Below, in pieces: positions 10,732 through 56,445 of a DNA stretch of 64,000 nucleotides (position 1 is the first letter of the stretch; each line of letters begins with the position of its first letter). Under the pieces are notes generated by a model. It did no database searches. It worked only from the letters and a program-made list of their open reading frames with translations, and was not told where the DNA came from. The DNA comes from an uncultured delta proteobacterium (GTDB lineage Bacteria > Desulfobacterota > Desulfobacteria > Desulfobacterales > Desulfosalsimonadaceae), in contig CAWGYD010000008.1 in the NCBI GenBank assembly GCA_963826785.1, positions 160,001 through 224,000 of the forward strand, given 5' to 3'. The position numbers and the translations under genes are program-made.

Positions 10732-10937
10732 GCGCTCATCCTTCCATCCTCTCATGGTGAAAAGGGGACAATCAGTTTACATCATTTAACATGTAATTGG
10801 CATTTGAAAAAGTCCGGATTGATCTTCGCAAGTTAACCACGGCGATTTCGAATTTCAATGCCGGCACTTCAGCCTTGACGCGCTGCAATCCGCATAGGCA
10901 TAATAGATTTGTCAAGCAGGCTTCACGGCGTTTTCAG

Positions 10938-36202: not shown

Positions 36203-39200
36203 ATGCAAAAGGTCAAATTATCAAGTTATTTTTTGGTTTTGGCTTTTGCTGTTTTTGCCTTGGCCCTGGGCGTCGACCAGGCCGGTGCGAAAAAAGCATT
36301 GAACGACAATACGAATCTCACAGACAAGGCCCTTAAACATCACGGGAAGGTCACCACAACAGAACAAAAGACCGCTGCCGCCACGTTCCAGATGCAATAT
36401 CAGCCCGCTTTAATGGCCGGGGCCGCCGCTCCGGCAGCCCCGGATCCAGGCGGTATTCCGCATTATTTCGGTCCCTATCCAAACTGGGCCAACAGCCCCA
36501 TGCCCACGGGCGCGGTCGGCAGCGTCACCTTGATTGATCCGGGCGCCGGTTATACCGCCCCGATCGTTACCATTACCGATCTTTACGATTCCGCGGGGGC
36601 AGATGGCGCCACGGCAGCAGCCGTTATTGATCCGGTCTCCGGCGCGATTACCGATATTGTTCTTTTAAGCGGCGGCGCCGGCTATACCGCCCCCATCGTT
36701 ACCATTACTGACGACACCGGCGCGGGCGCTTCCGCCGCGGCCGCATTGGATCTGACAAGCCTCACCGGAGGCATCCGGAAATTCATGGACGCCCTGCCCG
36801 GCCTGACATCTTCCCAAGCCAACCTGCTCGGACAGTACATCCCCGTCGCAGTCGCCGATACCACATCATATTCTGCAGGCGGCGCCGGCTATACATCAGC
36901 ACCGACGGTGGCCATCACCGATGCCACCGGCACCGGTGCGACCGCCATCGCGACTTTGAACGGCGATAAAGTGATCAGTGTCGAAGTCACCAATGCCGGC
37001 AGCAACTATTCTCAAAACCCGCTGGTCGTCTTTTCCGGCGGCGGCGCCGCATCCCAGGCCGTGGCCATTGCCACCGTGGATCCCACAACCAAAACCGTTA
37101 CCGATGTGACCCTGACCGGCGCCGACTACTATGAAATCGGGGTCGTCGATTTTAACGAAAAGATGCATACGGACCTGCCGCCCACGCGAATCCGGGGATA
37201 TGTGCAGATAGCCACGCCAGTGGTGCCGGGTTCCCACATTGCGCTGACCGACCCGAACGGCAATCCCGTAACGCTGCCCGACGGATCGCAGGCATATGCC
37301 GTGGATAATCCCCACTACATGGGGCCGGTCATCGTCTCCAGGCGCAACGTGCCGGTGCGGGTGAAATTTTACAACCTGCTCCCCACGGGTGCCGGCGGCA
37401 ACCTGTTCCTTCCGGTGGACAAGACGGCCATGGGGGCGGGAACAGGCCCCCTCGGCGGAACTGAGACGTACACCGAAAATCGCACCGTCAGCCATCTGCA
37501 TGGCAACAACGGCGTCTGGATCAGCGATGGCACCCCCAACCAGTGGATCACGCCGGCCGGCGAGTCCACTTCTTATCCCAAGGGTGTGAGCGTGCGGAAC
37601 GTTCCCGATATGCCCGATCCCGGCGATGGTGCGGTAACACTGTATTACACCAACGCGCAGAGCGCCCGCCTGGAGTTCTACCACGACCATGCACTGGCCA
37701 TCACCCGCCTCAACGTCTATGCCGGTGAAGCCGCACCCTACCTGATCACCGATGACGTCGAGGAAGATCTCATCAACGGCACCAACTACACCGGCGTCAA
37801 CCCCGGCGGACTCAACGTGCTGCCCGACATCGGCATTCCCCTGGTCATTCAGGACAAGGGATTTGTGGATGCAAGCACAATTTCCTATCAGGACCCCACC
37901 TGGAACTCGGGCACCACCGCCCCGGCCCCCAATACCGGCGACCTCTGGTACCCGCATGTCTACATGCCGGCCCAGAATCCGTGGGACCCGTCCGGAATCA
38001 ATGCGTTCGGCCGCTGGCATTACGCCCCCTGGTTCTGGCCGCCTGCAACGGATCTGATGTATCTGCCGGTGGATAACGAGTATTATGACCCGATCAATGC
38101 GCCCTGGGAGCCGCCGCAGCGGCCCGCCACCCCCAATCCGTCCATGGTGGGCGAGGCCTTCATGGATACCGCGGTGGTCAACGGCACCGCCTACCCGTAC
38201 ATGGAAGTGGAGCCCGAAAGCTTACCGTTTCCGCATCCTGAGCATTGCCAACGACCGGTTTTTCAACCTGCAGTTTTATGTGGCCGATCCCGCCGTGACC
38301 ACCGCCGACGGACGGACCCATACCGAAGTCAAAACGATTCCCTCCGCGGGGATGACAGGTCTCCCGGCTGACTGGGCGGCCGGCGTGCCCGATCCGACCA
38401 CCAAGGGCCCGGACTGGATTCAGATCGGCACCGAAGGCGGCTTTATCCCGGCCCCGGTGGTGATCCCCTCACAGCCCATCACCTGGAACATGGACCAGAC
38501 CGCATTTAACTTCGGCAATATGGATCAGCATTCGCTTCTTGCTGGGACCGGCTGAGCGGGCGGATGTCATCGTGGACTTCTCCCAGTTTGCCGGAAAGAC
38601 GATCATCCTTTACAATGATGCGCCCGCGGCTTTCCCCGCATACGACGCGCACTATGACTATTTCACCGGGGACCCGGACAACACCGATATCGGCGGCGCC
38701 CCGACCACCCAGGCCGGATTCGGCCCCAATACCCGCACCCTTATGCAGATCAGGGTCGGCACCGATGTGACCACGCCCACTGCAGATGTGACGCTTGCCA
38801 ACCTGCAGACCGTGTTTGCCAAGACTGCGGCGAAGCAGGGGGTTTTTGAGGCGTCCCAGGACCCCATCATCATGCCCCAGGCGGATTACAACACCGCGTA
38901 CAATGCGAGTTTCCCCAGCAGCCCGACAACGGCTTATGTGCAGCTCAGCAATTTCCAGAAAAGCTTTCAGCCGATCGATTCATTCGGCAATTTTTTGAGC
39001 CCGGTGACGCTTCCCCTGCAGGCTAAAGCCATCCAGGATGAAATGGGGGAGGCTTACGACAATGAATATGGACGGATGAGCGGGATGCTCGGGCTGGAAC
39101 TGCCGGTGACGAACTCCACTACCCAGCAGTTCATGCTCTATCCATTCATGTCCCCGCCCGTCGACCTCATCAAGGGTTCGATGTACGCCGACCCCGTCGG

Positions 39201-40689
39201 TTCGTTAGCGGACGGCACCCAGATCTGGAAAATCACCCACAACGGGGTGGACACCCACGTAATCCACACCCATCTGTTCAACGTGCAGATGGTCAACCGG
39301 GTCGCATGGGACGGTGCACTCATTCCGCCCGATGCCAACGAGCTGGGCTGGAAGGAAAGCTTCCGGGTCAATCCGCTGGAGCACACCATCGTTGCCCTGC
39401 GGCCCCTGCTGCCCAATGCGCCTTTCCAGGTTCCCAACAGCATCCGTATGATCGATCCGACCAAACCGGATGGATACATGCTGATGGGGCCGCCCACGGG
39501 ATTCATGGATCCGCTGGGCAACCCGGTGACCGTCATGAACCACCTGGTCAATTACGGATATGAATACATGGAGCACTGCCACCTGCTGGCCCATGAAGAA
39601 ATGGACATGATGCATGCCATTTCCATCAGCGGCCCGCCGACGGCGCCTTCCGACCTGAGCGCCGCCCTGGTTCGGCAACGGCAAAAAACGCCGGGTCGAC
39701 CTGGCATGGCTGGACAATTCGGTCAATGAAACGGCGTTCGTGATGGAGCGGGCCACCAGCATTGCCGGTCCCTGGGCCGTCTTGGCGACCCTCTCCACAG
39801 ATGGAAACGCGATGGGTCCGATGTTGTATCCGGATGCCATCGGAAACACCAACTTAACCTTCTATTACCGGGTGAAAGCCATCAACGTGGTCGGTGATTC
39901 CGACACTCTCGGTTTCCCCACCATCAATAGCGAATCCGCTTATACTGCACCGGTCAGTTTTTCATCGGCATATCCCGATGAAATCGGCGTTTTTCAAAAT
40001 GGTACATGGTATTTAGACAAAAATGGAAACGGTGTATTCGACAGCGGAGTGGATGCCATGTTCCATTTCGGAATAGCCGGAGACATGCCGATCGCAGGCG
40101 ACTGGAACGGTGACGGATATGACGAAGTAGGCGTCAAACGCGGCAACAGGTGGTATCTGGATTATAATGGCAACGGTACATGGGATGCCGGTGATGTCAC
40201 TATCCCCCGTTTCGGCTTGGCTTCTGATGTTCCCATCGTGGGCGACTGGAACGGTGACGGAAAAGACGATATCGGCGTCAAACGCGGCAACAGGTGGTTC
40301 CTGGATTACAACAACACAGGCGCCTGGGATACCGGCGATATTACCTATAACAACTTCGGGCTGTCTTCTGATCTACCTGTCGCGGGCGATTGGAATGCCG
40401 ACGGGTATGACGAAATCGGCGTCAAACGCGAACCAGGTGGTACCTGGATTACAATGGCACCGGTGCCTGGGATGCCGGTGATGTCACCTATAACAACTTC
40501 GGGCTGTATTCTGATCTACCTGTTGCAGGCGATTGGAATGCCGACGGGTATGACGAAATCGGGGTGAAGCGCGGAAGCAAATGGTTCATGGACTACAATG
40601 GCACAGGGGCCTGGGACTCCGGCGATATCACCTATGCCAGCTTCGGACTGGCTTCTGACCTGCCTGTCGTCAGTAAATGGGCACCCTGA
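36203..40689 (+). CDS. large secreted multicopper oxidase with FN3-like domain and GDWNGDG repeats; four apparent frameshifts
   Basis: Signal peptide; HLHG, YHDH, HVIHTHL and HCHLLAHEEMDMM copper motifs across ORFs 36203, 38085, 38539 and 39740. Frame changes near 38220, 38540, 39675 and 40430. Confidence 0.85.
39975..40680 (+). repeat. ~132-bp coding tandem repeat (about 5 units, FG-GAP-like)
   Basis: Recurring GGCGA(C/T)TGGAA(C/T)G..GACGG and 'cctataacaacttcgggctgt', translating as W(Y/F)LDYN...FG...GDWN.DG.D.IGV. Confidence 0.85.
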
Positions 40690-42602: not shown

Positions 42603-42760
42603 AAAACACCTCCTCTGGTTCTGATCGCAAAATTAACTTCTTTTTAATAAAGGTAAGACCGTTTGAACTAAAAATAAGGAGGCGATTTGAAGAAAGGTAA
42701 AAGGATAGACAAAAAAAACAGTCTGGTTATCCGGAATACTCCAGTCAGAATTCCGGATTC

Positions 42761-42848
42761 AAAGTCCCCCTTTGGAAAAGGGGGATTTAGGGGGATTTGG
42801 CGCCTCCCGGGAGAAATCCCCCCCGCCCCCCTTTTCAAAAGGTGGGAG
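42761..42848. repeat. REP-like palindromic element, family A
   Basis: AAAGTCCCCCTTTGGAAAAGGGGGATTTAGGGGGATTT...AAATCCCCCC; related copies at 49106 and 49177. Confidence 0.8.
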
Positions 42849-42893: not shown

Positions 42894-42936
42894 TTGACTT
42901 TAAAGAGTAACACCGTTACTGTAACAGTGTCGTTAA
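42894..42936 (+). promoter_or_regulatory. sigma70 promoter with overlapping palindromic operator (likely TetR site)
   Basis: TTGACT(42894)-N17-TACTGT(42917); palindrome AGTAAC-ACC-GTTACT at 42906-42920, followed by a second GTAACA half-site. Confidence 0.7.
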
Positions 42937-42963
42937 AGATAAACTTCTCACGGAAATCCGACC

Positions 42964-43633
42964 ATGCCCAAAACCCAGCGAAAGCCCGAAGAAATCGAAG
43001 CCGTAAAGGAGCAGATGCTGGATCATGCACTCGAGCTGATCGCCGAATCAGGATACAAAGGCTTCAGCATGCGCAAGCTCTCCGCCCGGCTGGGGATTGC
43101 GGCGAAAACCATTTACAATTATTATGTCAACAAGGATGAGATCTACCTGGTCATCCTGACCCGGGGATTCGAATACCCTTTACGACACCTGCCTGGCCGC
43201 CGGCCGCCCCGCAAAAAACCCCATGGACAGGATCGCCGCCATGAGCCGTGCATTCGTGGACTTCGGCATCGAACACGCAAACCTGTACAACCTGATGTTC
43301 ACCTGGCATGTGCCCAAGTTCAAGGATTACCTGGGCACGCCCATGGAAGGCGCCGCCCAGGTGGAACTGGAAACCGCACTGAAGCTTTCCGAACTGTTCA
43401 TTGACGCCATCAAGGCGTGCGGGCAGGGTTCGGCACCCCTGTCTGATGAGGACGCCCGCTTCCTGATGATCCAGATCTGGGTACAGGGGCACGGGTATGT
43501 GGCAGGTCTCAACAACACCCTGCTCGACTACATGCACGAAGCCCCGCTGACGATCAAGGACCGGCTGGTGGAATCCATGATGCAAAACATCAGGTCCGCT
43601 TTGAAGGCGAACTTTATAAGGAGCATTAGTTGA
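42964..43633 (+). CDS. TetR/AcrR family regulator, apparent +1 frameshift near 43177
   Basis: HTH GFSMRKLSARLGIAAKTIYNYY.NKDE; C-terminal W...HG domain in ORF 43223. Confidence 0.88.
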
Positions 43634-44544
43634 AAACCCCGCTCATACTCGAAATCAAGGGAAACTCGCTGGATGATGGACCGGGCATCCGATCGGTGGT
43701 CTTTTTCAAGGGATGTCCCCTCTCCTGCGTCTGGTGCCACAACCCGGAAAGCAAGAAAACGGATGCGGAGATCGGGTTTGAGGAGAAAGAATGCGTGGGG
43801 TGCAATACCTGTATGGAAACCTGTACGGAAAAGGCGCTTTCCCGAAATAACCCTTACTTCGTGGACCGCAGCCGCTGCAGCCTGTGTTTTGCCTGCACGG
43901 ACGCCTGCCCCTCCGGCGCATTGAGCCGCATCGGAAAATCCATGGGCGTCGATGAGATTGCGGCTCAAATCATCCGGGACAAGCCATTCTTCGATACCTC
44001 CGGCGGCGGGGTCACCTTTTCCGGAGGGGAACCCACGCTGTTCATGGAGTTTGCCGGGGAACTGGCCAAAACCCTCAGGCAAAGCCATGTCCGTGTCCTG
44101 CTGGAAACCTGCGGCCTTTTTGATTTCAGCAAATTCAAAGACTATCTTTATCCCTATCTGGATGAGATATACATCGACATCAAGCTGATGGATGACGCGC
44201 TTCACCGGCAGCACTGCGGTGCGGGCAATGCGGTCATCATGGACAATTTCAGAAAAATTCATGCCTTGTCGCAAAACGGCGGCATCCCGGTCACGCCCCG
44301 CACCCCCCTGATTCCCGGGATCACTGACACGACGGAAAACATGTCCGCCATTGCCGAATTCCTGATATCCTGCGGCGCCAAACAGGCCCGGCTGCTTCCC
44401 TATCATCCCCTGTGGCAGGAAAAAAACCGGAAGATCGGCATCGGCAGGACAAAAAATCAAGACCCGGCCATGGACCGCTGGCTGGACAACCAGGTGCTGG
44501 AGCAATGCCGGGCTGTTTTCATGGAAGCCGGGATTAAACTGTAA
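43630..44544 (+). CDS. glycyl-radical enzyme activating protein with ferredoxin-like insertion
   Basis: DGPGIR, GCPLSCVWCHNPES, two CxxCxxCxxxC motifs, SGGEP and LPYH. Confidence 0.95.
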   Translation: MKTPLILEIKGNSLDDGPGIRSVVFFKGCPLSCVWCHNPESKKTDAEIGFEEKECVGCNTCMETCTEKALSRNNPYFVDRSRCSLCFACTDACPSGALSRIGKSMGVDEIAAQIIRDKPFFDTSGGGVTFSGGEPTLFMEFAGELAKTLRQSHVRVLLETCGLFDFSKFKDYLYPYLDEIYIDIKLMDDALHRQHCGAGNAVIMDNFRKIHALSQNGGIPVTPRTPLIPGITDTTENMSAIAEFLISCGAKQARLLPYHPLWQEKNRKIGIGRTKNQDPAMDRWLDNQVLEQCRAVFMEAGIKL

Positions 44545-44549
44545 GGGAG

Positions 44550-44779
44550 AACACCCCCCTGCGCCCCCCTCAAGGGGGGATTACAATTTCCCATCTCGAG
44601 GGAGGATTAAAGCTACGATTTCCCCTCAAGGGAGGATTAAAGCTGCAATTTCCCCTCTCAAGGGGGGATTAAGCTACAATTCCCCTCTGAATTGGGGGGT
44701 TATGGTACTTACGCAATTCCCACCTCAAATGGGGGCGCACACAAACAATTCCCCCCTTGAGGGGGGTCAGGGGGGTGTT
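44550..44779. repeat. REP/MITE-like palindrome cluster, family B
   Basis: Terminal inverted repeats AACACCCCCCTG/CAGGGGGGTGTT enclosing about seven degenerate CCCCTC.AGGG.GG hairpins. Confidence 0.85.
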
Positions 44780-44844
44780 TGGACACAGAAAAAAAAACAT
44801 TCTTCCATTTTTTTAGAATCATCAACCATCAACGGAGGTGATTT

Positions 44845-47800
44845 ATGCTGCTCAAAACCGATCCCGCAACAAGTGTGACGAACGGCTCCCAAAGCAAGAC
44901 CCTGACCCATCTTTTGACCAAAACCCTGCTGCGGACCATGGCGGCCACCTTCAACCTCCGGCCCGGACTGAAGAAATACCTGAAAACCGATGCCGGCTGG
45001 TTCGACTTCACCGTGGGCATCCGCACGGAGAGCCGCTCGGTGGAGACGGCCATCCGGTTTCGCGGCGGCAAGGTCGGCATCCTTAAAGAACATCCCCGAT
45101 GACTGCGAGGTCTGCCTGATCTTTTCGTCGGACGGCGCCATCCGCAAACTGCTCTCGGCCACCCCCACCGAGCAGATCTTCATGATCATGAGAAGCGAGT
45201 TCCGGACGGTGGGGAACCAGTCCTATATGAACCTGTTTTTCTATTTCCTGTCGCTGCTGCTGCACAAGAAGCAGAAGAAGCTGATGCTAAAAGAGCGCGA
45301 CACGGATCAGAAAAACCTGTTGAAGGCATCGCCGAGCGCCCGGTCCGACCTGAGCAACGAACTCAAGCAGCGAAGCGCCTACCGCATGCAGGCGGAAAGC
45401 ATCGACCCGGGAGTCAGGTTCCTTCAAGACCCGTATCTTTCCGCCTATGCCATCGACGATTTCCCCAGGATCAAGGATTTCCTGGAGATCCATTTCACGG
45501 CCCGGGCCGAAGTCTGCCCGGAGCGGCCGAAGCTGATCACCGAATGGTACAAGAAAAACGGGTTTGAAAAAGACAGCCGCGGCAATGACTGGATTCCCGA
45601 ACTGCGCCAGGGGCATGCCTTCAAGTACCTGATGGAAAACCGCAAACCCATCATCGGGAAGAATGACCTCATCGCGGGCACCACCACCGCAAAGGATATC
45701 GGGGTGGTGGTATACCCGGACAGCCACGGCACCATGATCTGGAACGAACTGCTCACCGTCCCCCACCGGACCTTGAACCCCTATGATCTTTCCGAGGAAA
45801 CCGCCGATTTGCTCCACCGGGAGGTGTTTCCCTTCTTTATCCGCCGCAATTTCAAGGAATGGGTCCGGGACAACTATGATGCCCCGCTCTGCCAGGCCAT
45901 CGACGAACGGTTTGCCGTCTACTTCATCTGGAAGCAGGCGGCCCTGTCCCACACCATTCCCGATTTCCCCAAGATCATGGCCAAAGGTGCATCCGGCATC
46001 ATCGAAGAAATCAAGGGCCATTTGGCCAGACCGGGCCTGGATCCGAAGCAAAAGGCCACCCTGGAAGCCATGGTGCTCTGCCTGGAAGGGCTGATCGCCT
46101 ATGGTCGAAAAACCTGGCCGGGCAGGCGAAAGCCGATGCGGCAAAAGAAACAGACCCCGTGCGCCGGAAAGAACTGGAGCATCTGGCAAAAATCTGCGCG
46201 CAGGTGCCCGAGCACCCGGCCCGCACCCTGGACGAGGCGGTCAACGCCATGTGGATCACCTGGGTGGGGCTGCACATGGAAAACACCAATGCGGGGCTTT
46301 CCCTGGGCCGGCTGGACCAGTGGCTGCAGCCCTATTTCGCCGCGGACATGGAAAAAATCGACGATCCGGGCGAGCGCCAGGCCTTTATCAAGCATGCCAT
46401 TGAAATGGTGGCCTGCTTTTACATGCGCTGCACCGACCACCTGCCGCTGACCCCGGACCTGGCCAACTGGTACTTCGGGGGAAGCTCCTCGGACCAGGCC
46501 ATCACCCTGGGCGGGATCACCCCGGAAGGAAACGACGCGGTCTGCGATATGACCTACATCTTTTTGAAGGTCACGGAGATGCTCTCCATCCGGGACCCCA
46601 ACGTCAATGCCCGCTTCCATCCGGGGATCAACAGCGATGCCTACCTCAAACGCCTGTGCGAGGTCAATCTCATCACCGCGGCCACCCCTTCCCTGCACAA
46701 CGACAAGGCAATCATGGCATCGCTTGCAGAATTCAATTACGCCCCCGAGGACCTGCGCAACTGGTCGGCGACGGGGTGCGTGGAGCCCACCCTGTCAGGC
46801 CGGCACATCGGACATACCAATTTCCAGATGATGAACATGGTGGCGGCCGTGGAAATGGCGCTGCACAACGGCTATCATCCGCCCATGAACTGGAAGCTGG
46901 GGCCGGACACCGGCGAGATCGCAGATTTTGCCACATTCGATGATTTCTTCACCGCTTTTACCGAACAGTTCAAGTTCCTCATCGACCACTCCATCGCATA
47001 CAACAACATGCTGGGCCTTGCCCACCAGTACATCCGGCCCACACCGCTCCTCTCGTCGCTGATCGAGGATTGCATCTCCAAAGGCGCGGACGTGACGCAC
47101 GGCGGCGCACGGTACAACAGCTCCGGGGCGGCCTGCATCGGGCTCGCCGATGTGACCGACTCCATGATGGTGATCAAGAAATTGATTTATGATGAGAAGA
47201 AGATCGATTTTACCCGGCTGAAAAAAGCGGTGGACGAAAATTTCGAAAGCGACCCGGCACTGCATGCCATGGTGACCAAAAAAGTGCCGCTGTTCGGATC
47301 GGGAAGCGAAGAGGCCGTGGCCATGGCCGACCGGATCACCAAATTCGCCCACGACTATTACGGCAGCCACGTAAACTACCGGGGCGGGCCGTACACGGTG
47401 GGGTTCTGGTCCATGTCCAACCACGTCATCTATGGGACCTTGAGCTCCGCCCTCCCCTCGGGCAAGCTCTACGGGAAACCCTTCACCCCCGGACTCACCC
47501 CGGAGCCCCACGCATCGAGCAGCCTGCTGGACAATATCCGGGATGTGGCCCGGCTCAACCCCCAATACATCAACAACAACATCGCCTTTAACGTCAAGGT
47601 GGTCCCCGGCGGCGCCGACACCCGTGAAAACGTCATCGCCCGGATGTTCTCCTACACGAAGACCTTTTTCGACCTGGGGGGCATGCAGATGCAGATGAAC
47701 GTGGTCACCTCCGAGACGTTAAAAGACGCCATGGCCCACCCGGAAAACTACCGCAACCTCCTGGTGCGCATCTCCGGATACAACGCCTATTTCGTGACCT

Positions 47801-47853
47801 TAAACCGCGATCTGCAGATGGAGCTGATCGAGCGGGCGGAATACGGGTTGTAA
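44845..47853 (+). CDS. glycyl radical enzyme (PFL2/dehydratase-like) with N-terminal extension; two apparent frameshifts
   Basis: GGAGG RBS; SLGRLDQ, TLGG, Cys loop SATGCVEP, IGLADVTDS and Gly-radical motif LLVRISGYNAYF. Frame changes near 45086 and 46109. Confidence 0.92.
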
Positions 47854-47866
47854 AAGGGGGGAAAAA

Positions 47867-49087
47867 ATGGCCACGCTCGAATGCAACCGCAGGCACTTTC
47901 TGAAACTGACCGGCGCGGCGGCCGCCGCGGCGTTATTGCCGGCCTGCAGCCACAGCATGAAGCGGCTGGAGGGCGAGGCAAACGCCATGCCGTTGATCGA
48001 TGCCCCGCATGCAAGGGCCTCCGGGGCCTGGATCGCCAAAGATGCGGGGGATGCCGAGTCCTATCCGCTCTTCAAGCAGGCCCTCGAGGCGGCAACCGAT
48101 TTTTCCTGGCTCTCTCCGGGCGACCCGGTTTTTGTCAAGATCGCCATCAACTCGGCAAACCCCTATCCGGCCACCACCGACCCCTGGGCGCTTTCCTCCA
48201 CCATCCGGCTTCTTAAGGAAAAAGGGGCCGGCAAGATCATCGTCGGCGACTCCAGCGGGGTCGAATCGGTGCACTGGACCCGGGATAAACAGCGGGGATC
48301 ATCACGCGAGAACTGCGAAAAGGCCGGGCTCCTCAAGGTGATCAACGAAAACGGAGCCGAGGCGGTCTTCTTCGAGGAGGCGGGGTATGATGCCTTCATC
48401 CCCGTCTTGCCCCGGGGCGCCCACCACTGGAAAGAACCGCTCTGGATAACCAGGGCCGTGGCATCGGCCGCGCACATCGTCTACCTCCCCCGGGTCAGCT
48501 CCCATGTGATGGGCGACATCACTTCGGGGATGAAGATCGGCGTCGGGTTTTTGCGGGAAGACAGCCGGCGAATGTTTCATTCCGGCGGGGACGATTTTTA
48601 TGCCATGTACGAGGAGATCAACCACGTCCCGGAAATCGCGGACCGGCTCCGCCTCACCGTTTCCTCGGGGCGGAAAGTGCTGGCCACCTTCGGCCCGGAC
48701 GACGGGCATGTCACCGCCCCCGCGTTCGCCCCGGTGATCGCCTCCGAAGACCTGCTGTCCCATGAAATGGCCGCCTATGCCTGGCTGTGCTACAACCGCG
48801 AGTTTGAAACCTCCTTTTTCGACGCCGGGTTCACCGGCGGCCTGACCAAACGGCGCTCGTTCATCAACCGGGGGTTTGTCTGGTACATCTGGGACGAGGG
48901 CAGTTTCTTCGGCACCCCGGGGATTCCCCTTTATATCGCGGGAAACCTCTACGCCCACCCCTCGATTTTAAACGCGGCAAAGCGTCTGGGCGGCCGGCCT
49001 TCCCGAATCGATTTCGAATCGGTAAACGCCCCGGCAAAAGCATCAGAAATGGCCGCCTACATGCAGCGGCGGATAACGCAGGGTTAA
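47867..49087 (+). CDS. Tat-exported DUF362-like protein, possible lipoprotein
   Basis: NRRHFLK Tat motif, LPAC lipobox-like motif, VFVKIAIN, TTDP and SSHVMG. Confidence 0.8.
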   Translation: MATLECNRRHFLKLTGAAAAAALLPACSHSMKRLEGEANAMPLIDAPHARASGAWIAKDAGDAESYPLFKQALEAATDFSWLSPGDPVFVKIAINSANPYPATTDPWALSSTIRLLKEKGAGKIIVGDSSGVESVHWTRDKQRGSSRENCEKAGLLKVINENGAEAVFFEEAGYDAFIPVLPRGAHHWKEPLWITRAVASAAHIVYLPRVSSHVMGDITSGMKIGVGFLREDSRRMFHSGGDDFYAMYEEINHVPEIADRLRLTVSSGRKVLATFGPDDGHVTAPAFAPVIASEDLLSHEMAAYAWLCYNREFETSFFDAGFTGGLTKRRSFINRGFVWYIWDEGSFFGTPGIPLYIAGNLYAHPSILNAAKRLGGRPSRIDFESVNAPAKASEMAAYMQRRITQG

Positions 49088-49105
49088 AGTCGGAATCACC
49101 GCTTC

Positions 49106-49229
49106 AAGTCCCCCTTTTCAAAGCCACGCTCTTTGTAAGCCTGCCTCGGGTATCTGAAAATCGCGACAATCGCTTTAAAGTCCCCCTTTTTTTCAAAGGG
49201 GGATTTAGGGGGATTTAAAATGGTAATTA
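49106..49229. repeat. REP-like family A copies (partial at 49106; copy at 49177 interrupted by the IS)
   Basis: AAGTCCCCCTTTTCAAAG and AAAGTCCCCCTTTTTTTCAAAGGGGGATTTAGGGGGATTT; the matching AAATCCC arm resumes after the IS at 51124. Confidence 0.78.
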
Positions 49230-51117
49230 GTGTTTGAACGAAAACAATTTTAATCAATAAAAAGCGATGGCTATATATTTAGTATGGTATCAAGAATTTT
49301 AAAAAAATTGTCACTTATTCGATTTTTTCACTTGATTTTTATCTTGTACTAATTGTATAATATCCTGAATTTTTTATTTAAAATCTTATAATCCGGAATC
49401 CGGTGAAACGCTTCCAATCAAAAATCTTCAGGAAAAAATATGCGAAGAGTTATCGACCCCCAAATGAAAATCGGTGAAAAAGCAATCGCCAGCATCAAAT
49501 TTGATCTCCGCTGCCGGGACGAAATCCCCAAACTGCTTCGCGGGTTGCAGGCCATATACTGCAACCGGGAACTGCGCGAAAAGGTCTTCGCCGTTCTCAC
49601 TGAGATCATCCCGGATCATATCGATCCCAACAATGGCCGCAAGGGCATGGATCTGTGGAAAATATTCGTCCTGGGCACCCTGCGGCTCAACTGCGACTGG
49701 GATCATGATAAACTCCATGACATCGCCAATAATCACAAAACACTCCGGCAGATGCTCGGCCATGGCACAATGGATGCCGATTATCAGTATTCACTGCAAA
49801 CCCTCAAGGAGAATATCTCCTTGTTTACACCGGAGGTGTTGGACAAAATCAATCAGCTCGTTGTCCAGTACGGTCATCAGTTGGCCGGTAAAAAAAAAGA
49901 TCGAAAATTGGCCGGAAGCTGTGATTCTTTCGTCGTTGAAACCGATGTTCATTATCCAACTGATATTAATCTACTTTTTGATGCCATGCGAAAAATGATC
50001 ACGCTGATCATGCGTATCTGCGAACATATGGAGATTACTGATTGGCGCCAGGGCGAACACCATATTCGTAAAGCAAAAAAATTGTATCGAAAAGCCCAAC
50101 GGTTAAAACACTCCTCATCAAAAGATAAGACCAAAAAGGCCGAAAGGGCACAACTGATCATTGATGCTCACAATGAGTACATCAATCTGGCCCGCTTTTA
50201 TGTTGATAAAATTAGGCAATCGTTCACTTTATTGCTGACATCCAATATCCTCACCCAAATGAAAATAGCTGAAGTAAAAGATTATATGGTTCATGCCGAA
50301 AGGCAGATCGATCAGATCTGCAGAAGAGTTGTTCAAGGCGAAACGATCCCCCATCACGAAAAGGTGTTCTCACTCTTTGAGCAACACACCGAATGGATCA
50401 GCAAAGGCAAAGCCGGTGTTCCGGTGGAACTCGGTTTAAAGGTTTGCATTGTCAAAGATCAATACAATTTCATTTTGCATCATCATGTGATGCAAAATGA
50501 AACCGACGACAAAATCGTCGTTTCCATTATCAAAGAAACGCAGCGCAGATTTGCCGATTTTAAAAATTGCAGTTTCGACAAAGGTTTTCATAGCCCAAAC
50601 AATCAGAAAGAATTGGCAATTCTGCTGGACAGAGCCGTGCTTCCCAGAAAGGGGAGGCTTTCGGCTATTAATAAAGAAATCGAGAACTCCGAAGAATTTA
50701 AAAAAGCGAAAAGAAAGCATTCGGCAGTTGAATCCTCGATCAATGCACTGGGCAATCACGGACTGGACAGGTGCCGGGACCATGGCATTGAAGGTTTCAA
50801 ACGCTATGTCGCCTTGGCCGTTGTAGCACGCAATATTCAGCTCATCGGTCATATGTTACAACAAAAAGAAGTCACTCGGTTGCGCCGCCAGGAAAAGAGA
50901 GAACGAAAAGCAGCTTAAACAAGCGATATTTGAGGCACCGGCAGGATACCTGCGTTCAAAAATAAGAAATGGGCCGAAAATCATAGCTTTTTGCGATATT
51001 GAAAATAGTTTTGACCAATGCCGCTTGGATCTCATGCTGAATTTCCCCTAGCCGGCACAAAAATCCGGCGAAATTTTCTGCCGGAAAAATTAAAAATCCG
51101 GGTTTTCGTTCGGGCAC
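49230..51117 (+). mobile_element. complete insertion sequence (ISNCY/ISDol1-like)
   Basis: IRL GTGTTTGAACGAAAAC and IRR (reverse complement) GTGCCCGAACGAAAAC match at 13/16; direct repeat TAATTA at 49224-49229 and 51118-51123. Confidence 0.9.
49440..50918 (+). CDS. DDE transposase
   Basis: DSFVVETDVHYPTD, KGKAGVPVELG, SFDKGF and HSAVES.IN motifs. Confidence 0.93.
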   Translation: MRRVIDPQMKIGEKAIASIKFDLRCRDEIPKLLRGLQAIYCNRELREKVFAVLTEIIPDHIDPNNGRKGMDLWKIFVLGTLRLNCDWDHDKLHDIANNHKTLRQMLGHGTMDADYQYSLQTLKENISLFTPEVLDKINQLVVQYGHQLAGKKKDRKLAGSCDSFVVETDVHYPTDINLLFDAMRKMITLIMRICEHMEITDWRQGEHHIRKAKKLYRKAQRLKHSSSKDKTKKAERAQLIIDAHNEYINLARFYVDKIRQSFTLLLTSNILTQMKIAEVKDYMVHAERQIDQICRRVVQGETIPHHEKVFSLFEQHTEWISKGKAGVPVELGLKVCIVKDQYNFILHHHVMQNETDDKIVVSIIKETQRRFADFKNCSFDKGFHSPNNQKELAILLDRAVLPRKGRLSAINKEIENSEEFKKAKRKHSAVESSINALGNHGLDRCRDHGIEGFKRYVALAVVARNIQLIGHMLQQKEVTRLRRQEKRERKAA

Positions 51118-51136: not shown

Positions 51137-51754
51137 TTATCCGCCCATACGAATAAGCCCCACATATTTCCCCACGATCCTGACCTTCTTCCGCCCCCCG
51201 CCCTTCAATATGATCGGCGGGTAATCCTTGTTCGCCGAGTGCAGTTCAAGGACGCCCTTTTTCCGGCGGATTATTTTCAGCGTCGCCTCGGGCAGCATTT
51301 CATCCACAATGACTGCAGCAATGGCGCCGTTATCCACATCATCACGCGGTGCGATCACCGCCAGATCGCCCTCCTGGATATGCGCTTCGATCATGGAATC
51401 GCCAACCACCCGCACGGCAAAACAGGCCTCGTGGCCGTACAAAGCGGGATCAATGGGAAGATAAGCTTCAACATGATCAAAGACGCCGATGGGCGTTCCC
51501 GCTGCGATGCGCCCGGCCAGGGGAATGCATTTCGACTCCACAGCAACGGCTGTCGGCCGCCATGACCGTTTTTTACCGCGAATAGATTCAATAAACCCCT
51601 TCTCAATCAACACATGCAAGATCCGGTGCACCCCCGCGGGCCCCTTGAGCTCAAAATGCTCGCAGATCTCCCGCACGGTCGGGGCCATGCCGGTTTCCTG
51701 GTGGTGATGGAGAATGTATTCATATACACTCAACTGTCTGTCGGTTAATTTCAT
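51137..51754 (-). CDS. lexA: LexA repressor (205 aa)
   Basis: MKLTDRQ...PTVREI winged HTH, IAAG cleavage site, GDSM catalytic Ser and ATLK catalytic Lys. Confidence 0.93.
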   Translation of the reverse strand: MKLTDRQLSVYEYILHHHQETGMAPTVREICEHFELKGPAGVHRILHVLIEKGFIESIRGKKRSWRPTAVAVESKCIPLAGRIAAGTPIGVFDHVEAYLPIDPALYGHEACFAVRVVGDSMIEAHIQEGDLAVIAPRDDVDNGAIAAVIVDEMLPEATLKIIRRKKGVLELHSANKDYPPIILKGGGRKKVRIVGKYVGLIRMGG

Positions 51755-52203
51755 GAGATGCCTTTTACTCTCAGGCGCACACATTCCATGACCCGCAGCC
51801 CGGCCCCATACATGAGCTGCCCCATCAGCCAGCTCCTGCCGTCGAGTTGATTTAGAATTTCCCGGACTTCCGGTTTTGAATATACGACCGGCAGCCTTCT
51901 GGGCTTTTTCGCGCGGACCACGTCCTCTATCAGATTAAATTCCTGCTTCAACACTTCCCGGTACAAAAACAGCAGTGCATTGAAAGCCTGATTTTGCGTT
52001 GAGGCGGCAACTTTTCGATTTACCGCCAAATCAGTCAGAAATTGACTGATTTCCTTTTCGCCCATTTCTTTTGGGTGACGTTTATCATGATACAGAATAT
52101 ACCGCCTTATCCATCCGACATAGGTTTCCTCTGTTCTGATACTGTAGTGCTTCAAGCGAATGCGATTGCGTACCTGATCCAGAAGTTTTGGCGAATTTGA
52201 CAT
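51751..52203 (-). pseudogene. intI: integron integrase, C-terminally truncated (150 aa)
   Basis: KLLDQVR..IRLKHYS.RTE..Y, RHP.EMG, VAASTQNQA.NALLFLY, RLPVV and LMYGAGLR.MEC.RLRVK, then a stop. No HxxR or catalytic Tyr region. GAGG RBS. Confidence 0.92.
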
Positions 52204-52261
52204 AAAATACCTCTTTTGATGGATAAGTATAAGTGATATGATCAAACCAAAAATCAAAAAG

Positions 52262-52275
52262 TGAACATTTGTTCA
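52262..52275. promoter_or_regulatory. putative LexA (SOS) box
   Basis: TGAAC-ATTT-GTTCA palindrome (GAAC-N4-GTTC type), about 60 bp upstream of the intI ATG. Confidence 0.65.
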
Positions 52276-52285
52276 TATGGCTTAT

Positions 52286-52315
52286 AAGGTATCATATTGA
52301 AAAATGTGATATCAA
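52286..52315 (-). promoter_or_regulatory. putative Pint promoter
   Basis: Minus-strand TTGATA-N18-TACCTT with a TGn extension, just upstream of the palindrome. Confidence 0.4.
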
Positions 52316-52404
52316 GAACTTTTTCTTCATATAACCACTCTGAGGGGTGATATTGACCCAATTCGCTCGATATGAAGATTTCGTAAGCAAATTGGCTGTA
52401 AAAT

Positions 52405-52439
52405 AAAACAGCGATTAGTACATATATTTCTTGTTAGGG
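52405..52439 (+). other. attI site (core GTTAGGG at 52433)
   Basis: GTTRRRY-like core upstream of the divergent intI; complementary to CCCTAAC at the end of cassette 1. Confidence 0.7.
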
Positions 52440-52443
52440 CTCA

Positions 52444-52833
52444 ACGTTAAAAGAATCAACGTGTCAGAAATGCAAAGCAGCTCTGTTCGAAGACAACGCC
52501 GAGATTCGTCAGCCTTGTCCTGTTTGTGACTGTATGACCCGCTCCTCTGTTGAATCGCTGCACGATACGATTGTGGCTCTTGACCATATGCGCATGAAAG
52601 GAAGGCACGCTGATAATAAACGCCCCTATTTTGATGCTCGTACTGGCGCCAGCTATTACCGCAAGGACGGTGAATGCCATCTTTACCGACTTATCGACCG
52701 TGATAATGATCGTTACGTCGAGACGATAAAGCGCCTGAGCACTGGAGAAATCATTTATCACGTAGATGAACCGCTTTCAAAACACATCGGCCACGGCAGC
52801 GCGAAATCCTTAAACGAGTCGGTGGAGCCCTAA
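52444..52833 (+). CDS. cassette 1: zinc-ribbon hypothetical protein
   Basis: Open frame upstream of ATG 52534 encodes CQKC...CPVC; C-terminal DEPLSKHIGHGSAK; the stop codon lies within attC. Confidence 0.65.
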   Translation, partial: TLKESTCQKCKAALFEDNAEIRQPCPVCDCMTRSSVESLHDTIVALDHMRMKGRHADNKRPYFDARTGASYYRKDGECHLYRLIDRDNDRYVETIKRLSTGEIIYHVDEPLSKHIGHGSAKSLNESVEP

Positions 52834-52955
52834 CCAGAAAGCTCAAGGGGCAGCCAGGGCAGTCGGGTTTTGAAAATTTGGGGGAAATTGAACATTAACC
52901 ATCTTTAAGACAAGTCAGTGGAAGCCCTGGCCCCCATTGGCTGCCGCCGTTAGCA
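52827..52955 (+). other. attC site 1
   Basis: GCCCTAAC ... GCCAGGGC/GCCCTGGC inverted arms ... GTTAGCA. Confidence 0.75.
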
Positions 52956-53035
52956 AAGGTCTTTTCGGGTGCGCCCACAATTTGGCGTGAAAAGCAAGTT
53001 CCTATTGATTTGTTGGACTTCAAAAATCGGAGTAA

Positions 53036-53870
53036 ATGATGAAGTGTCCATTTTGTGCAGAAGAGATAAAAGACGAAGCAATAAAATGCAAACATTGCGG
53101 TGAGTGGTTAGAGGCCAAAGGCGCTCCACAGCAATCAAGGGCTTTTACAGACAGTTCAGTCCAAAATAAACCCCCAGTATTTGAAAAATCAATGAGATAT
53201 GGCGGCAATTCACAGCCTTTGTAGATATTGGCGAAACAATTGAGCAATCGGCAAACCTCCCAGAGAAGTATCTTCCTGAAGAGGTTTTTAAAAAAGAAAA
53301 AATCAATATACCAGACATAATGGAAGCCAAAATGCTCAAGACTAAAAACGGATGGATCCTGCTATACTCAAATCTTCTTTTTAAAGGTTGGGGTTTCTAC
53401 GATATGGTATTTACAAATAATAGAATCGTTTTAGTTGCAACAACACCACGAGAAAAGTTTAATAGTCCATCTGCTGGTATATTTGGCCTCTTTGGGATTA
53501 CGTTATCGGCGGCATTCAAGAAATACCAATAACTAACAAAGGATAAAAAAATTGATCTAAATATTATTGATCAGTTAATTGAAAATAGAGCAGCTATTTA
53601 TATAGAAGTTGACAACATTAAAAAAATGATTATTGCATAAGAAAATTTCTTTTGCGGAAGATTTTTTCGGCGAAAAGCATTTAGAGTGATTATTTCGGGC
53701 AATTTTAACTACAACAAAACGATTCGAATTGGTTTCCTCTGTTTTTTTTCAGAAGGCAACAAGATTAACGAAAGGAAAAAAATGATAGATCAAAATATTA
53801 ACTTCCAGACTATCTTGCGTCAGAGAAAGTGGATGCTGTTTCTGATATTGGAGATACTTTAGCAAAGTTT
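53036..53870 (+). pseudogene. cassette 2: decayed zinc-ribbon protein
   Basis: CPFCAEEI...KCKHCGEWL N-terminus, a frameshift near 53187, and in-frame TAA stops at 53530 and 53638; AT-rich. Confidence 0.7.
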
Positions 53871-53949
53871 TAGCGGTTTATGTGAAGAGAACTAATCTTA
53901 TATTAAGAAATTGAGAAAAATAGGTGACCCCATTCACGGAAATGATTAT

Positions 53950-54021
53950 GCCTAAGCAAATGCACACGGACGCCGGACTCCGCTGCGCTCCGTTTGCTGC
54001 CGGTGATTTGCAACGTTAGGG
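53950..54021 (+). other. attC site 2 (damaged R'' box)
   Basis: GCCTAA-GCAAATGCAC...GTGATTTGC-AACGTTAGGG. Confidence 0.78.
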
Positions 54022-54041
54022 ATCGAGAGAAAGGACATGAC

Positions 54042-54961
54042 ATGCCGCGCTACTGGGTCATGGCTCCCGTTGAGTCGAAGCCGTCAGGTCTGTTCGACGC
54101 AGTATGGCAATTCGACCGTGACCAGAACGTGATATCTATCGGCTGGAGCCAACTTGGCGATATCACGGGCATGACCAGTGAAGAATTGGCCCAGGCTGTC
54201 GCAGCATCATATCCAGACAAGCCGCCACAGACCAAGGGGCTATACACAAACATGTTGTGGGCGTTCTACCACGAGATGCTTCCCGGTGACTACGTGATAG
54301 CACGGCGCGGCCGGAAGACCCTTGCCGGTGTGGGCAGGTTCCCGGACCCGCCGCATACGCGCCGGGCCGGAACTCGCCCGTCAATCATCCGGGGTTCATC
54401 GACGTTGCTTGGCAAGAGCAGCCCCGTGACAAGACGTTTCCCACGATTGTCTTTCCCATGCATACACTGGCGGAGTTTTCGGGGGAGCAATTCCGCAGCA
54501 TTGTAGAGGGCTCTGGCCCTCCCATTGCCCCACCGGGTGACGAACCCGAAGTCGAAGACCCGAGCGAGTTCGTTCTGGAGAAATATCTTGAAGACTTCAT
54601 CGTCAGTAACTTCGCGACGATCTTCAAAGGACACTTGCGGATTTTCGAAGATGCGGAAGGGAACGACGGTCAGCAGTATGCGACCGACATCGGCCCCATC
54701 GACATACTGGCAGTCGATGCACAGTCCAAAGCATTAGTCGTGATTGAGCTGAAGAAGGGACGGCCCTCCGACAGAGTCGTCGGGCAGATCCTACGGTACA
54801 TGGGATGGGTGAAGAGGAATCTGTGTTCTAATGGACAGATGGTGAAGGGGTTGATCATCTGTCGTGACCACGATCCAAAACTGAGCTATGCCCTGGAAAT
54901 GACAAACAACATCGACGTGCGATACTACAATGTGTCGTTCAAATTGAGAGAGAATCCCTAA
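54042..54961 (+). CDS. cassette 3: NucS/DUF91-like PD-(D/E)XK endonuclease with N-terminal sensor-like domain; one frameshift near 54340
   Basis: EKYLEDF, IDILA, IELKKG and VGQILRYMGWV motifs; N-terminal YW...ISIGW...GDYVIA. Confidence 0.8.
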
Positions 54962-55044
54962 CCAGAGCGTGGAGCGCGACTTCGGGCTAGCCGCGCCGCT
55001 ACGCTCTGCGGCCAACCCGAAGCGGCTCACGCTCGACGTTATGC
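54954..55044 (+). other. attC site 3
   Basis: ATCCCTAAC (complement of the cassette start GTTAGGGAT), GAGCGTGGAGC/GCTCACGCTC arms with a bulged base, and GTTATGC. Confidence 0.9.
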
Positions 55045-55069
55045 TAACAAATTTTTACCAGAGGAATAA

Positions 55070-56296
55070 ATGGCAGCAGAAGTTCAGAGCACGATCAAAC
55101 CATTAATTATGCAATTTTTAAATGAGTTAATGAAGAATTATTGGGGACCTCTTTATCATCATATTAAAAATAATTCAGAGTTGATGCTCACAGTTCCAGG
55201 GTTTTTGTTAGATCTTGAGAAAATAATTGTATTTGTCGGAAGAACACATATCGCAGTAGAATATATAGGCTCTGAAGTGTTGCAAGAGCTCAAGTCATTA
55301 GGGGAACTCGAAGTGCAATATCATGATTATTCTGTAAAAGACTGTAATCTCCTTGAGCAAGTCATTGGTTTCGAATATGACTCGACTTCAAACGTTCGAA
55401 TGCAGCTAACACCTGTAAGTGTTGATTATCTTTTCCCGACCAACCGTGGGTGGGATAAACTTTCTGAATTGGGCTGGAATTTTGCAGCACAAAATAGCGT
55501 CATGGGATTCAATATACCTTGTCCAGAACCTATTCCAGGTAAGTTTCATAGAATTGTTAATGGAATGTTTTTTGACGCTGATGAATCGGGGTTGAAATCA
55601 AGGCATATTAAATGGTTAGACTTTTTTCCTATCCTGTTTGATGGGAGTGATACAGAGTTTGATACCATCTCTTTTAGCTTAGAAAAAATAAAAAATTTAG
55701 TAGAGCAAGATGCAAATTACCAATATCCACTTCCTGATGACTATAAGTTCAAACAACTACCAAAGATAAATCGTTTTTTAGAATTATGGGGAAATTCCAA
55801 TAGCACAGAAACGGATATCACTACTTTTTTGGCAAAAGAAGAGAATGAATTTATCCTAACCATGAAATTCGGGGCAAAAGAAATTTATCCTGAGTTGACC
55901 TGTGAATGGCAGAGCACTGAAAGGGATGACATAAGGCCAGATTTCTTTGTTGTGCAGCCAAATGGTTATGCTGACATCGTTGAATTCAAACTTCCCAATA
56001 TTAATAAAAATTTTATCGTTGGAAGTAAAAACAGGGAAACTTTTTCTGCATGGCTAAATTCATATATATCTCAGACGCGTGTTTATAGAACTTATTTCGA
56101 TGACCCGAATAATAGAAAATGGTTCGAAGATAAATATGGCTTTAAAGTTCACAACCCGCGCCGATGGCTTGTGGTAGGCCGCAGAAATGATTTTGACTCT
56201 GACATATGGAGGGAAATCATAGCAGATTATAAAGACATAGAGATATTAACTTTTGATGATTTAATCGATGGTGTAGTTGTTCAATTTTACAAGTAA
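55070..56296 (+). CDS. cassette 4: Shedu (DUF4263)-like nuclease
   Basis: C-terminal RPDFF...IVEFK.P, QTRVY (QxxxY), VVGRR and LTFDDL motifs; AT-rich; GAGG RBS. Confidence 0.8.
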   Translation: MAAEVQSTIKPLIMQFLNELMKNYWGPLYHHIKNNSELMLTVPGFLLDLEKIIVFVGRTHIAVEYIGSEVLQELKSLGELEVQYHDYSVKDCNLLEQVIGFEYDSTSNVRMQLTPVSVDYLFPTNRGWDKLSELGWNFAAQNSVMGFNIPCPEPIPGKFHRIVNGMFFDADESGLKSRHIKWLDFFPILFDGSDTEFDTISFSLEKIKNLVEQDANYQYPLPDDYKFKQLPKINRFLELWGNSNSTETDITTFLAKEENEFILTMKFGAKEIYPELTCEWQSTERDDIRPDFFVVQPNGYADIVEFKLPNINKNFIVGSKNRETFSAWLNSYISQTRVYRTYFDDPNNRKWFEDKYGFKVHNPRRWLVVGRRNDFDSDIWREIIADYKDIEILTFDDLIDGVVVQFYK

Positions 56297-56314
56297 TCAA
56301 TTTATAAATATTTT

Positions 56315-56402
56315 GCATAACCTGCGGCTCCACGCGACCGCGGGCCAGCGCAGTCATTTATCATAGGGCATAGGCGCGGTCGCGTGAGCCTATGCGTTGG
56401 CA
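56315..56402 (+). other. attC site 4
   Basis: GCATAAC, GGCTCCACGCGACCGCG/CGCGGTCGCGTGAGCC arms with a bulge, and GTTGGCA. Confidence 0.9.
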
Positions 56403-56445
56403 AGCAATCAATGATGACAACATGCATATAAAAAAGAGGCTGAAC

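Follow-up and report, generated by a model that had tools for sequence, protein, structure and literature searches.

A 64,000-nucleotide stretch of DNA from an uncultured delta proteobacterium of the Desulfosalsimonadaceae (GenBank assembly GCA_963826785.1, contig CAWGYD010000008.1, positions 160,001 to 224,000 of the forward strand; hereafter the window) carries an operon whose central gene encodes a glycyl radical enzyme (GRE) of about 1,003 amino acids (44845..47853, + strand; three frames in the assembly), fused at its N-terminus to a sterol carrier protein-2 (SCP2) domain. The activase, the Gly/Cys radical relay, the CXE glutamate, a histidine at the position of His164 of glycerol dehydratase and the fused SCP2 fold were established by homology or computation. 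From the sequence, the locus is tentatively read as a TetR-repressed catabolic operon in which a cytoplasmic GRE 1,2-eliminase might act on a sphingoid base or another long-chain amino alcohol. A long-chain amino alcohol was favoured because the label of a neighbouring reductase, the nesting of ceramidase genes, amine-handling neighbours and residue Asp551 of the GRE fit it best.

The N-terminal SCP2 domain

The N-terminal extension of the GRE comprises about 200 amino acids, with the SCP2 domain at about residues 20-150 (44899..45286, + strand, split by the first frameshift) and a helical linker. The model of the full-length enzyme (pLDDT 88.6, pTM 0.91) showed an alpha/beta domain at residues 22-163 and, after it, a linker. 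A domain model was built from 71 homologues, the closest intact domains (pLDDT 86); with VIA-align, ranks 1-10 of 48,161 chains were all of the SCP2 type, the best match having a Z score of 11.3 and an rmsd of 2.4 over 109 residues aligned to human SCP2, and Foldseek gave a best E value of 6e-6. The sequence-level signal was faint but in agreement: Pfam SCP2 (PF02036) matched 34/71 members at E<=1 (best 8e-5), with no match for the window piece or the first member, and SCP2 accounted for three of four weak PDB profile hits of the domain (E about 0.5). These model-based comparisons support the SCP2-like character that a preliminary description of this DNA had proposed for the extension, and the N-terminal motifs quoted there were all present in the sequence. 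Nor is the extension a separate gene, as it lies in the same open reading frame (ORF) in relatives, and of the 120 best homologues 111 exceed 950 amino acids; 24 of 26 long proteins matched by the domain profile run on into the GRE core. Judged by its fold, the domain probably binds lipid, and a lipophilic substrate of the GRE may soundly be inferred.

Family membership and active site

The GRE matched PF02901 and PF01228, and Foldseek aligned it to a pyruvate formate-lyase (PFL)-like fold at E 1e-52. An activase gene adjoins it, and the radical-bearing Gly979 of the RISGY motif (47776..47778, + strand; PF01228) and the catalytic Cys646 with Glu648 of the CXE motif (46777..46785, + strand) were invariant in 111/111 homologues. 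Residues are numbered as in the intact relative P0002 (locus L102) and reference residues were counted from alignments; the naming of the latter as active-site residues follows in part PMC13450708, PMC7077986 and PMC8473560. The single-cysteine GCVEP loop and the RISGY motif were both present as described earlier, with the Cys codon at 46777-46779 and the Gly codon at 47776-47778. A search with the C-terminal part of the GRE yielded 2,187 matches among 8,000 scored, and the long homologues were 72-86% identical across this part. Named hosts included Desulfatibacillum, Desulfosudis, Smithella, Spirochaetota, Actinomycetota and Chloroflexota. An SCP2-fused GRE (SCP2-GRE) was found in 32 of 151 genomes sampled from the class of the window, often in 2-4 copies; the N-terminal profile had matched 42/151 genomes, ten of which, with the match in ORFs of 156-229 amino acids, were dropped. 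The family is therefore common, and 'atypical' was not an apt term for the enzyme.

P0002 remained under all NCBIfam cut-offs of the characterised GRE classes, and the enzyme could thus be assigned to none of them. Its nearest solved relatives were CutC, Archaeoglobus fulgidus PFL2, propanediol and glycerol dehydratases and HypD (27-29% identity), and the eliminase scaffold was recovered with TM scores of 0.91-0.93 to propanediol, glycerol and choline lyases at 27-29% identity. Class scores, residues and structural matches agree with the earlier view that the GRE is of the eliminase type and neither a PFL nor a fumarate-adding enzyme. PFL was rejected on the single cysteine in place of a Cys-Cys pair and on a score of 104 bits vs 994 (TIGR01255). 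CutC (TIGR04394, 384 vs 1050) was rejected with His371, Trp364, Asp551 and Met663 at the positions of Asp216, Tyr208, Phe395 and Tyr506, and glycerol/propanediol dehydratase (TIGR01774, 477 vs 678) with only His164 kept among His164, His281, Ser282, Asp447, the aromatic residue 339 and Tyr640. Scores were likewise below the cut-offs (bits/cut-off) of HypD (398/1100), HpsG (357/1000), HpfG (349/1000), the Escherichia coli PflD type (347/1109), IAD (257/1100) and HPAD (189/1150); HypD, the sulfonate lyases and the decarboxylases were accordingly rejected as well. Fumarate-adding GREs, marked by a BssD-type activase and small subunits, are not known to carry the CXE glutamate. BssA and MasD were rejected, as Glu648 is present, the activase scored 186 vs 496 on TIGR04003, and BSS and MasD ranked low; the neighbour scan covered ORFs from 80-100 amino acids upwards.

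By alignment, His371 corresponds to glycerol dehydratase His164, HypD His160 and CutC Asp216, and Ala484-Gly485 stand in place of glycerol dehydratase His281-Ser282. Thr659 and Met663 correspond to CutC Thr502 and Tyr506, Asn660 and Trp856 to glycerol dehydratase Asp447 and Tyr640, and Trp364 lies at the CutC Tyr208 position. Asp551 (46492..46494, + strand), a candidate ammonium-binding residue, takes the alignment position of CutC Phe395, glycerol dehydratase Tyr339 and HypD Asp339-Phe340. In the 111 homologues, His371, Ala484-Gly485, Cys646, Glu648, Thr659, Asn660, Met663 and Trp856 were invariant and Asp551 was found in 109. The role of the CXE motif in GRE 1,2-eliminases is described in section 5.6 of PMC13450708; the motif, here GCVEP with Glu648 in 111/111 homologues, is also common to GRE isomerases. 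CutC Phe395 and HypD Phe340 make cation-pi contacts with the substrate nitrogen, according to PMC8473560, and an aspartate at position 551 would suit a primary ammonium. The 'new radical chemistry' suggested earlier was an overstatement, as the residues point to known CXE 1,2-elimination on a new kind of substrate.

Further members of the family were observed. A second, intact SCP2-GRE of this genome (G000 C1:533920-536960; L008:7918-10959, minus strand) is 55% identical, has Thr at position 551 and Gly at 660, and showed no activase, TetR or operator within the 19 kb around it; it perhaps serves a different substrate or step. Five near-full-length GRE genes and one GRE fragment were counted in the genome as a whole. 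One other GRE (793 amino acids; G000 C4, L009:1730-12543) lies in an operon with an extended short-chain dehydrogenase/reductase (SDR), an SDR and CoA-transferase-like subunits, and also with PrpD-like, acyl-CoA-dehydrogenase-like and small, possibly SCP2-like genes (neighbours labelled by eye). A divergent SCP2-GRE subfamily (L190, L191, L192, L195, L196 and L197), 48-50% identical to the core, keeps His371, Asp551, Thr659 and Asn660 with no activase evident beside it; three of its loci have enoyl-CoA hydratase- and acyl-CoA dehydrogenase-like genes, and L196 additionally an aldehyde oxidoreductase and an acyl-CoA ligase-like gene. In two full-length homologues (P0184 and P0213), the Cys loop and the Gly loop have apparently both been lost, and these proteins are possible pseudo-enzyme subunits. 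Tandem SCP2-GRE pairs with differing site residues occur in L055 and L066.

Co-occurring and neighbouring genes

Of the 151 genomes in the class sample, 119 were without SCP2-GRE. The ceramidase PF04734 was found in 14/32 genomes with the GRE vs 2/119 without and, among alkylsulfatase-domain-positive genomes, in 10/18 with the GRE vs 0/14 without; these co-occurrence counts carry less weight in that they include related genomes and are not independent. The lysoplasmalogenase YhhN, used as a control, showed no link to the GRE (7/32 vs 27/119, odds ratio 0.95), and the link of DUF6206 was weak (13/32 vs 11/119, and 8/18 vs 6/14 among alkylsulfatase-domain-positive genomes). A KDSR-like SDR (22/32 vs 4/119) and an extended SDR (20/32 vs 6/119) also co-occurred with the GRE, a result that is partly circular because the SDR profiles were built from GRE neighbours. 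In a second order, around the Smithella genome of L049, the GRE domain was detected in 8/121 genomes; there, ceramidase was found in 3/8 genomes with the GRE (one of the three a broken fragment) vs 0/113 without, and the SDR in 5/8 vs 8/113. In the two orders together, 17 of 19 ceramidase-bearing genomes carry SCP2-GRE. In one ceramidase genome without the GRE (G135), the activase and both reductases sit at a contig start, so that the GRE may be cut off.

The neighbour set comprised 160 related loci in 65 lineages at 80% identity. Their core was TetR, activase and GRE in either order, with the TetR cluster in 70/160 loci and an activase in at least 98/160. The scan of the recurrent neighbours, which covered ORFs from 80-100 amino acids upwards, recognised no microcompartment family, in agreement with the earlier remark that none is nearby. 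Besides TetR and activase, the most recurrent same-strand neighbours were two reductases, a classical and an extended SDR, which occur singly, as a pair or as a fusion (28/160 loci, 16/65 lineages); they adjoin the GRE in 14 of the 32 GRE genomes of the class sample, often in the order TetR-GRE-activase-extended SDR-SDR. For the classical SDR, 3-dehydrosphinganine reductase was the sole specific name among the best 120 homologues (22/120), and its Atlas rank-2 cluster bears the same name, in both cases as an automatic label.

Amine-handling neighbours were also observed. A class III aminotransferase with DUF6206 occurred in 8/160 loci (4-5 lineages), and in L090 a 2-hydroxyacyl-CoA lyase, an aminotransferase and an amino-acid permease lie upstream of the GRE, in a locus that also has a Zn-dehydrogenase. 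Mammalian HACL2, for comparison, serves phytosphingosine breakdown. In genome G105, in which no SCP2-GRE was detected, the same SDR stands beside a related aminotransferase (41% identity) and an APH-family kinase. The DUF6206 proteins (L019:3765-4682, L066:2729-3718 and G000 C9:79588-80517), paired with the class III aminotransferase, contain kinase-like motifs (Gly-rich loop, Lys, D-x4-N and a later Asp); they may be kinases, but no PDB match and no APH-kinase profile match (probability 0.1) was obtained. Lipid-catabolic genes among neighbours or in hosts included acyl-CoA ligase, thiolase, hydroxyacyl-CoA dehydrogenase, acyl-CoA dehydrogenase and aldehyde oxidoreductase. The aldehyde oxidoreductase and acyl-CoA ligase neighbours were given little weight because most of them derive from a single syntenic clade shared with housekeeping genes.

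Two further arrangements involve the partner reductases. In L225 (G071:C53) the extended SDR is divergent from a different GRE without SCP2, which means that it is not exclusive to the SCP2-GRE family. In L224 (G013:C109:392-6933) one operon combines the fused reductase pair with a regulator of the same TetR family, a DUF362 gene, a split transketolase and a possibly SCP2-like gene; its contig contains no GRE.

Proposed reaction and alternative substrates

In the reaction considered here, the enzyme would act on the polar head of its substrate, most likely sphinganine, sphingosine or phytosphingosine released from ceramide. The SCP2 domain would take up the alkyl tail and hand the head group to the barrel, where Cys646 would abstract the carbinol hydrogen and Glu648 would deprotonate the hydroxyl, whereupon the neighbouring group would leave. 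In the preferred variant this group would be the C2 ammonium, held by Asp551, Asn660 and His371, and the resulting 3-hydroxy fatty aldehyde would be consumed by aldehyde oxidoreductase, acyl-CoA ligase and beta-oxidation. In a second variant, phytosphingosine would lose water from its C3/C4 diol to give 3-ketosphinganine, which belongs to the substrate class of the neighbouring reductase family. Interconversion of 3-oxo and 3-hydroxy forms or of epimers might fall to the two partner reductases.

Several observations weigh against a long-chain amino alcohol. Asp551 is replaced by Thr both in L019, where the GRE lies beside the fused reductase pair, and in the paralogue of this genome, and it could equally protonate an alkoxide or a water leaving group. 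The window locus is without either reductase, and no solved KDSR/Tsc10 was present among the best 60 of 141 PDB matches of the SDR profile. No PF04734 match was obtained in this genome (88% complete), no ceramidase gene was found in the 177 stretches searched, mostly GRE loci, and PF04734 was detected in 9/50 further GRE genomes, mostly of other lineages (50 of 80 loci searched). Moreover, Alkyl_sulf_C, an SCP2-type domain taken as a general lipid control, was also enriched in GRE genomes (18/32 vs 14/119).

A less probable but serious alternative is an eliminase for nitrogen-free lipids, either a 1-O-alkylglycerol ether lyase or dehydratase or a long-chain 1,2-diol dehydratase. The products from alkylglycerol, on what is again a minority estimate, would be fatty alcohol and hydroxyacetone, or 3-alkoxypropanal, and the reductases would epimerise the carbinol or reduce the product. 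The best structural matches of the GRE are propanediol and glycerol dehydratases, His371 takes the position of His164, and the loss of His281/Ser282 leaves room for a chain; ether C-O-cleaving GREs exist (YbiW and PflD; section 5.7 of PMC13450708), and YhhN (L040) and phospholipase A1 (L023/L034) lie near the GRE in single loci. However, Asp447 and Tyr339 of glycerol dehydratase are represented by Asn660 and Asp551, YhhN shows no genome-level link to the GRE, unlike ceramidase, and the partner SDR bears the automatic name 3-dehydrosphinganine reductase.

Other kinds of substrate appear unlikely. A lipid of polycyclic or other type that carries a polyol or amino-polyol part, such as a bacteriohopanepolyol side chain, a steroid diol, a dihydroxy fatty acid or a surfactant head group, would be compatible with the SCP2 fold, with the best family matches of the extended SDR (HpnA and 3-beta-HSD-like models) and with the MMPL transporter that adjoins the GRE in one lineage (L072); the HpnA match, however, reached 131.7 against a cut-off of 367.65, and no steroid- or hopanoid-specific family was recognised among the recurrent neighbours scanned. 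It is more doubtful still that the substrate of the GRE is small and polar and that its SCP2 domain has a structural or membrane-tethering role or is vestigial. Such substrates are used by all characterised eliminases in a 2026 review (PMC13450708), and conservation is lower in the SCP2 region than in the barrel (median 53% vs 77% identity), but the domain is kept across the family and hosts and neighbours are lipid-catabolic.

With the sphingoid-base eliminase as the preferred reading, a broader and yet more tentative proposal can be made. The SCP2-GRE family might represent the missing oxygen-free entry to sphingolipid breakdown, namely a sphingoid-base ammonia-lyase or dehydratase that has its own lipid carrier and whose paralogues are adapted to different long-chain bases. 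In sediments and digesters it would serve sulfate reducers, syntrophs, spirochaetes and actinobacteria.

Operon organisation and putative TetR control

The tetR gene, the activase gene, the GRE gene of about 1,000 codons and the Tat-type DUF362 gene were all located where the preliminary description had placed them. The tetR gene (42964..43633, + strand; TetR_N and TetR_C_33) contains one frameshift in the assembly. It is followed by the gene of a radical-SAM GRE-activating enzyme with extra ferredoxin clusters (43630..44544, + strand), which matched TIGR02494 at 277.9 bits (cut-off 174.35) and remained under every class-specific activase cut-off.

The gene of a DUF362 protein with a Tat signal and a lipobox (47867..49087, + strand; PF04015, PF10518) begins 13 bp downstream of the GRE gene and is probably co-transcribed with it in the window. 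A conserved role as 'exported partner', as ascribed to this protein, is not supported. In a tblastn search (E<1e-3) that covered the 80 genome loci among the 160 related GRE loci, none of the 80 contained a match to the window DUF362, and seven close homologues in 40 relatives had no GRE, activase or TetR match in flanks of about 1.5 kb. A loose DUF362-GRE link may nevertheless exist, because another DUF362 subfamily recurs elsewhere: in L029 it separates activase and GRE, in L037 it is close to the GRE, and in L224 it follows the fused reductase pair. A second Tat-type DUF362-like gene was seen in the window at 9811-10776 (minus strand), followed by a membrane 4Fe-4S-type gene at 8168-9925 (labels by eye).

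A putative TetR operator of 25 bp (42908..42932), composed of two 11-bp half-sites (TAACRNYGTTA-N3-TAACRNYGTTA), overlaps the promoter, whose putative -35 hexamer is TTGACT (42894..42899, + strand). Of the 51 upstream regions inspected, most had a TTGAC-type hexamer 5' of the operator; a generic promoter scan did not list the hexamer at 42894 and gave three promoter-like sites vs 3.1 expected by chance. The operator element was present with <=4 mismatches in 43 of 50 scored regions upstream of tetR genes. A weight matrix trained without this genome scored only two sites above 19 in 4.4 Mb, at 42908-42932 and at G000 C3:168723, and no score above 16 was obtained in shuffled sequence. Operator matches were found in four of five other genomes, those with zero mismatches at GRE or tetR operons, although a reversed-pattern control also matched in these genomes at up to 3 mismatches. 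The TetR control assumed earlier thus has a conserved operator across the promoter in its favour, and TetR would be expected to bind at 42908-42932.

The second high-scoring site precedes another operon of this genome (G000 C3:168723-172192; L201), in which a paralogous tetR, a frameshifted fusion of an acetoacetate-decarboxylase-like domain with an extended SDR, and an SDR share the same operator. This operon is a candidate for a retro-aldol step acting on the GRE product.

Outside the system, an intergenic REP-like repeat cluster (D1-D3, I1) lies at 44550..44779, and further clusters of this kind at 42758-42845 and 49102-49216; their short core pattern has 388 occurrences genome-wide. A transposase gene (49440-50918, label by eye) is located immediately past the operon, and a low-GC stretch at 51137-57423 contains a LexA-like gene, an integrase fragment and restriction/defence-like genes (labels by eye).

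Frameshifts in the assembly

The reading frame is broken near 45090 and 46105 in the GRE gene and near 43175 in tetR. Compared with P0002, the three GRE pieces cover residues 1-87, 74-424 and 421-1003 at 72, 76 and 86% identity, respectively. All frame changes are single-base slips in or adjoining short A/C/T runs. A large multicopper-oxidase-like gene with repeat domains, 5 kb upstream of the operon (36203-40567, label by eye), is split over four ORFs by similar apparent slips. Of the other tested genes of the assembly, 5/56 are also split (8/59 entries, three of these being this GRE). The frameshifts in tetR and the GRE gene are very probably sequencing or assembly errors, because the pieces contain no in-frame stops, their dN/dS values are 0.11-0.21 and other genes of the assembly are likewise split. 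A recent pseudogene in place of a mis-assembled intact operon, a matter independent of the substrate, is unlikely: three frame changes within about 3-5 kb exceed the rate implied by the other genes and would speak for decay, but the nature of the slips, the absence of stops, the low dN/dS, the intact TetR operator and the likewise broken oxidase-like gene argue against it.

Comparison with known systems

CutC (PDB 9F3W, 5FAU) was the best PDB sequence match of the GRE (E 1.8e-110), and both share the CXE loop, Thr at the Thr502 position and small residues at the beta-strand Thr-Gly position. Unlike CutC, the GRE has His at the Asp216, Asp at the Phe395, Met at the Tyr506 and Trp at the Tyr208 position and a fused SCP2 domain, and no microcompartment family was identified among the neighbours of SCP2-GRE. 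CutC is the only known C-N 1,2-eliminase according to section 5.6.2 of PMC13450708. Glycerol dehydratase (1R8W) and propanediol dehydratase (5I2G, 9RCO) were the best structural matches (TM 0.91-0.93 by target). The equivalents of their His164, Cys433 and Glu435 are kept, whereas identity is only 27-28%, His281/Ser282 are replaced by Ala/Gly, Tyr339 by Asp, Asp447 by Asn and Tyr640 by Trp, and SCP2-GRE has about 200 extra N-terminal residues. With HypD (6VXC) the GRE shares the His160, Cys and Glu equivalents and an acidic residue at the Asp339/Phe340 amine site; it differs in its score (398 bits vs 1100) and in the Asp278 strand of HypD, which reads Asn-Ala-Gly in SCP2-GRE. A. fulgidus PFL2/PflD (2F3O), the function of which is debated (PMC13450708, section 7), was a near-equal best sequence match (E 4.9e-110), but is 29% identical, has different strand residues and is without an SCP2 domain. 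The same lipid-carrier fold is fused to a catalytic domain in the alkylsulfatases SdsA1/Pisa1/YjcS, UbiJ and MFE-2.

Sphingoid bases are otherwise delivered to fatty aldehyde and beta-oxidation by sphingosine kinase and sphingosine-1-phosphate lyase, a PLP- and ATP-dependent route of C-C cleavage and not of radical elimination. No paper on the SCP2-GRE family or on anaerobic sphingolipid breakdown was found in the literature searched, which left most subscription journals and the supplements outside, and the available text of the 2026 review (PMC13450708) mentions no GRE with SCP2 or a lipid substrate ('SCP2', 0 occurrences). Sphingolipids are produced in anoxic waters, as PMC11334938 reports. 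The presence of SCP2-GRE in about a fifth of the related genomes sampled (32/151) points to a common, undescribed anaerobic route against lipid head groups. A sphingoid-base eliminase would join CutC as a second C-N 1,2-eliminase and be the first of the GRE eliminases to act on a membrane lipid; if nitrogen-free lipids were the substrate, oxygen-free ether-lipid cleavage would be equally important for the turnover of lipid biomarkers. The question is directly testable, as there is a cultured host (Desulfatibacillum alkenivorans DSM 16219, L034), the operator is defined and the list of substrates is short.

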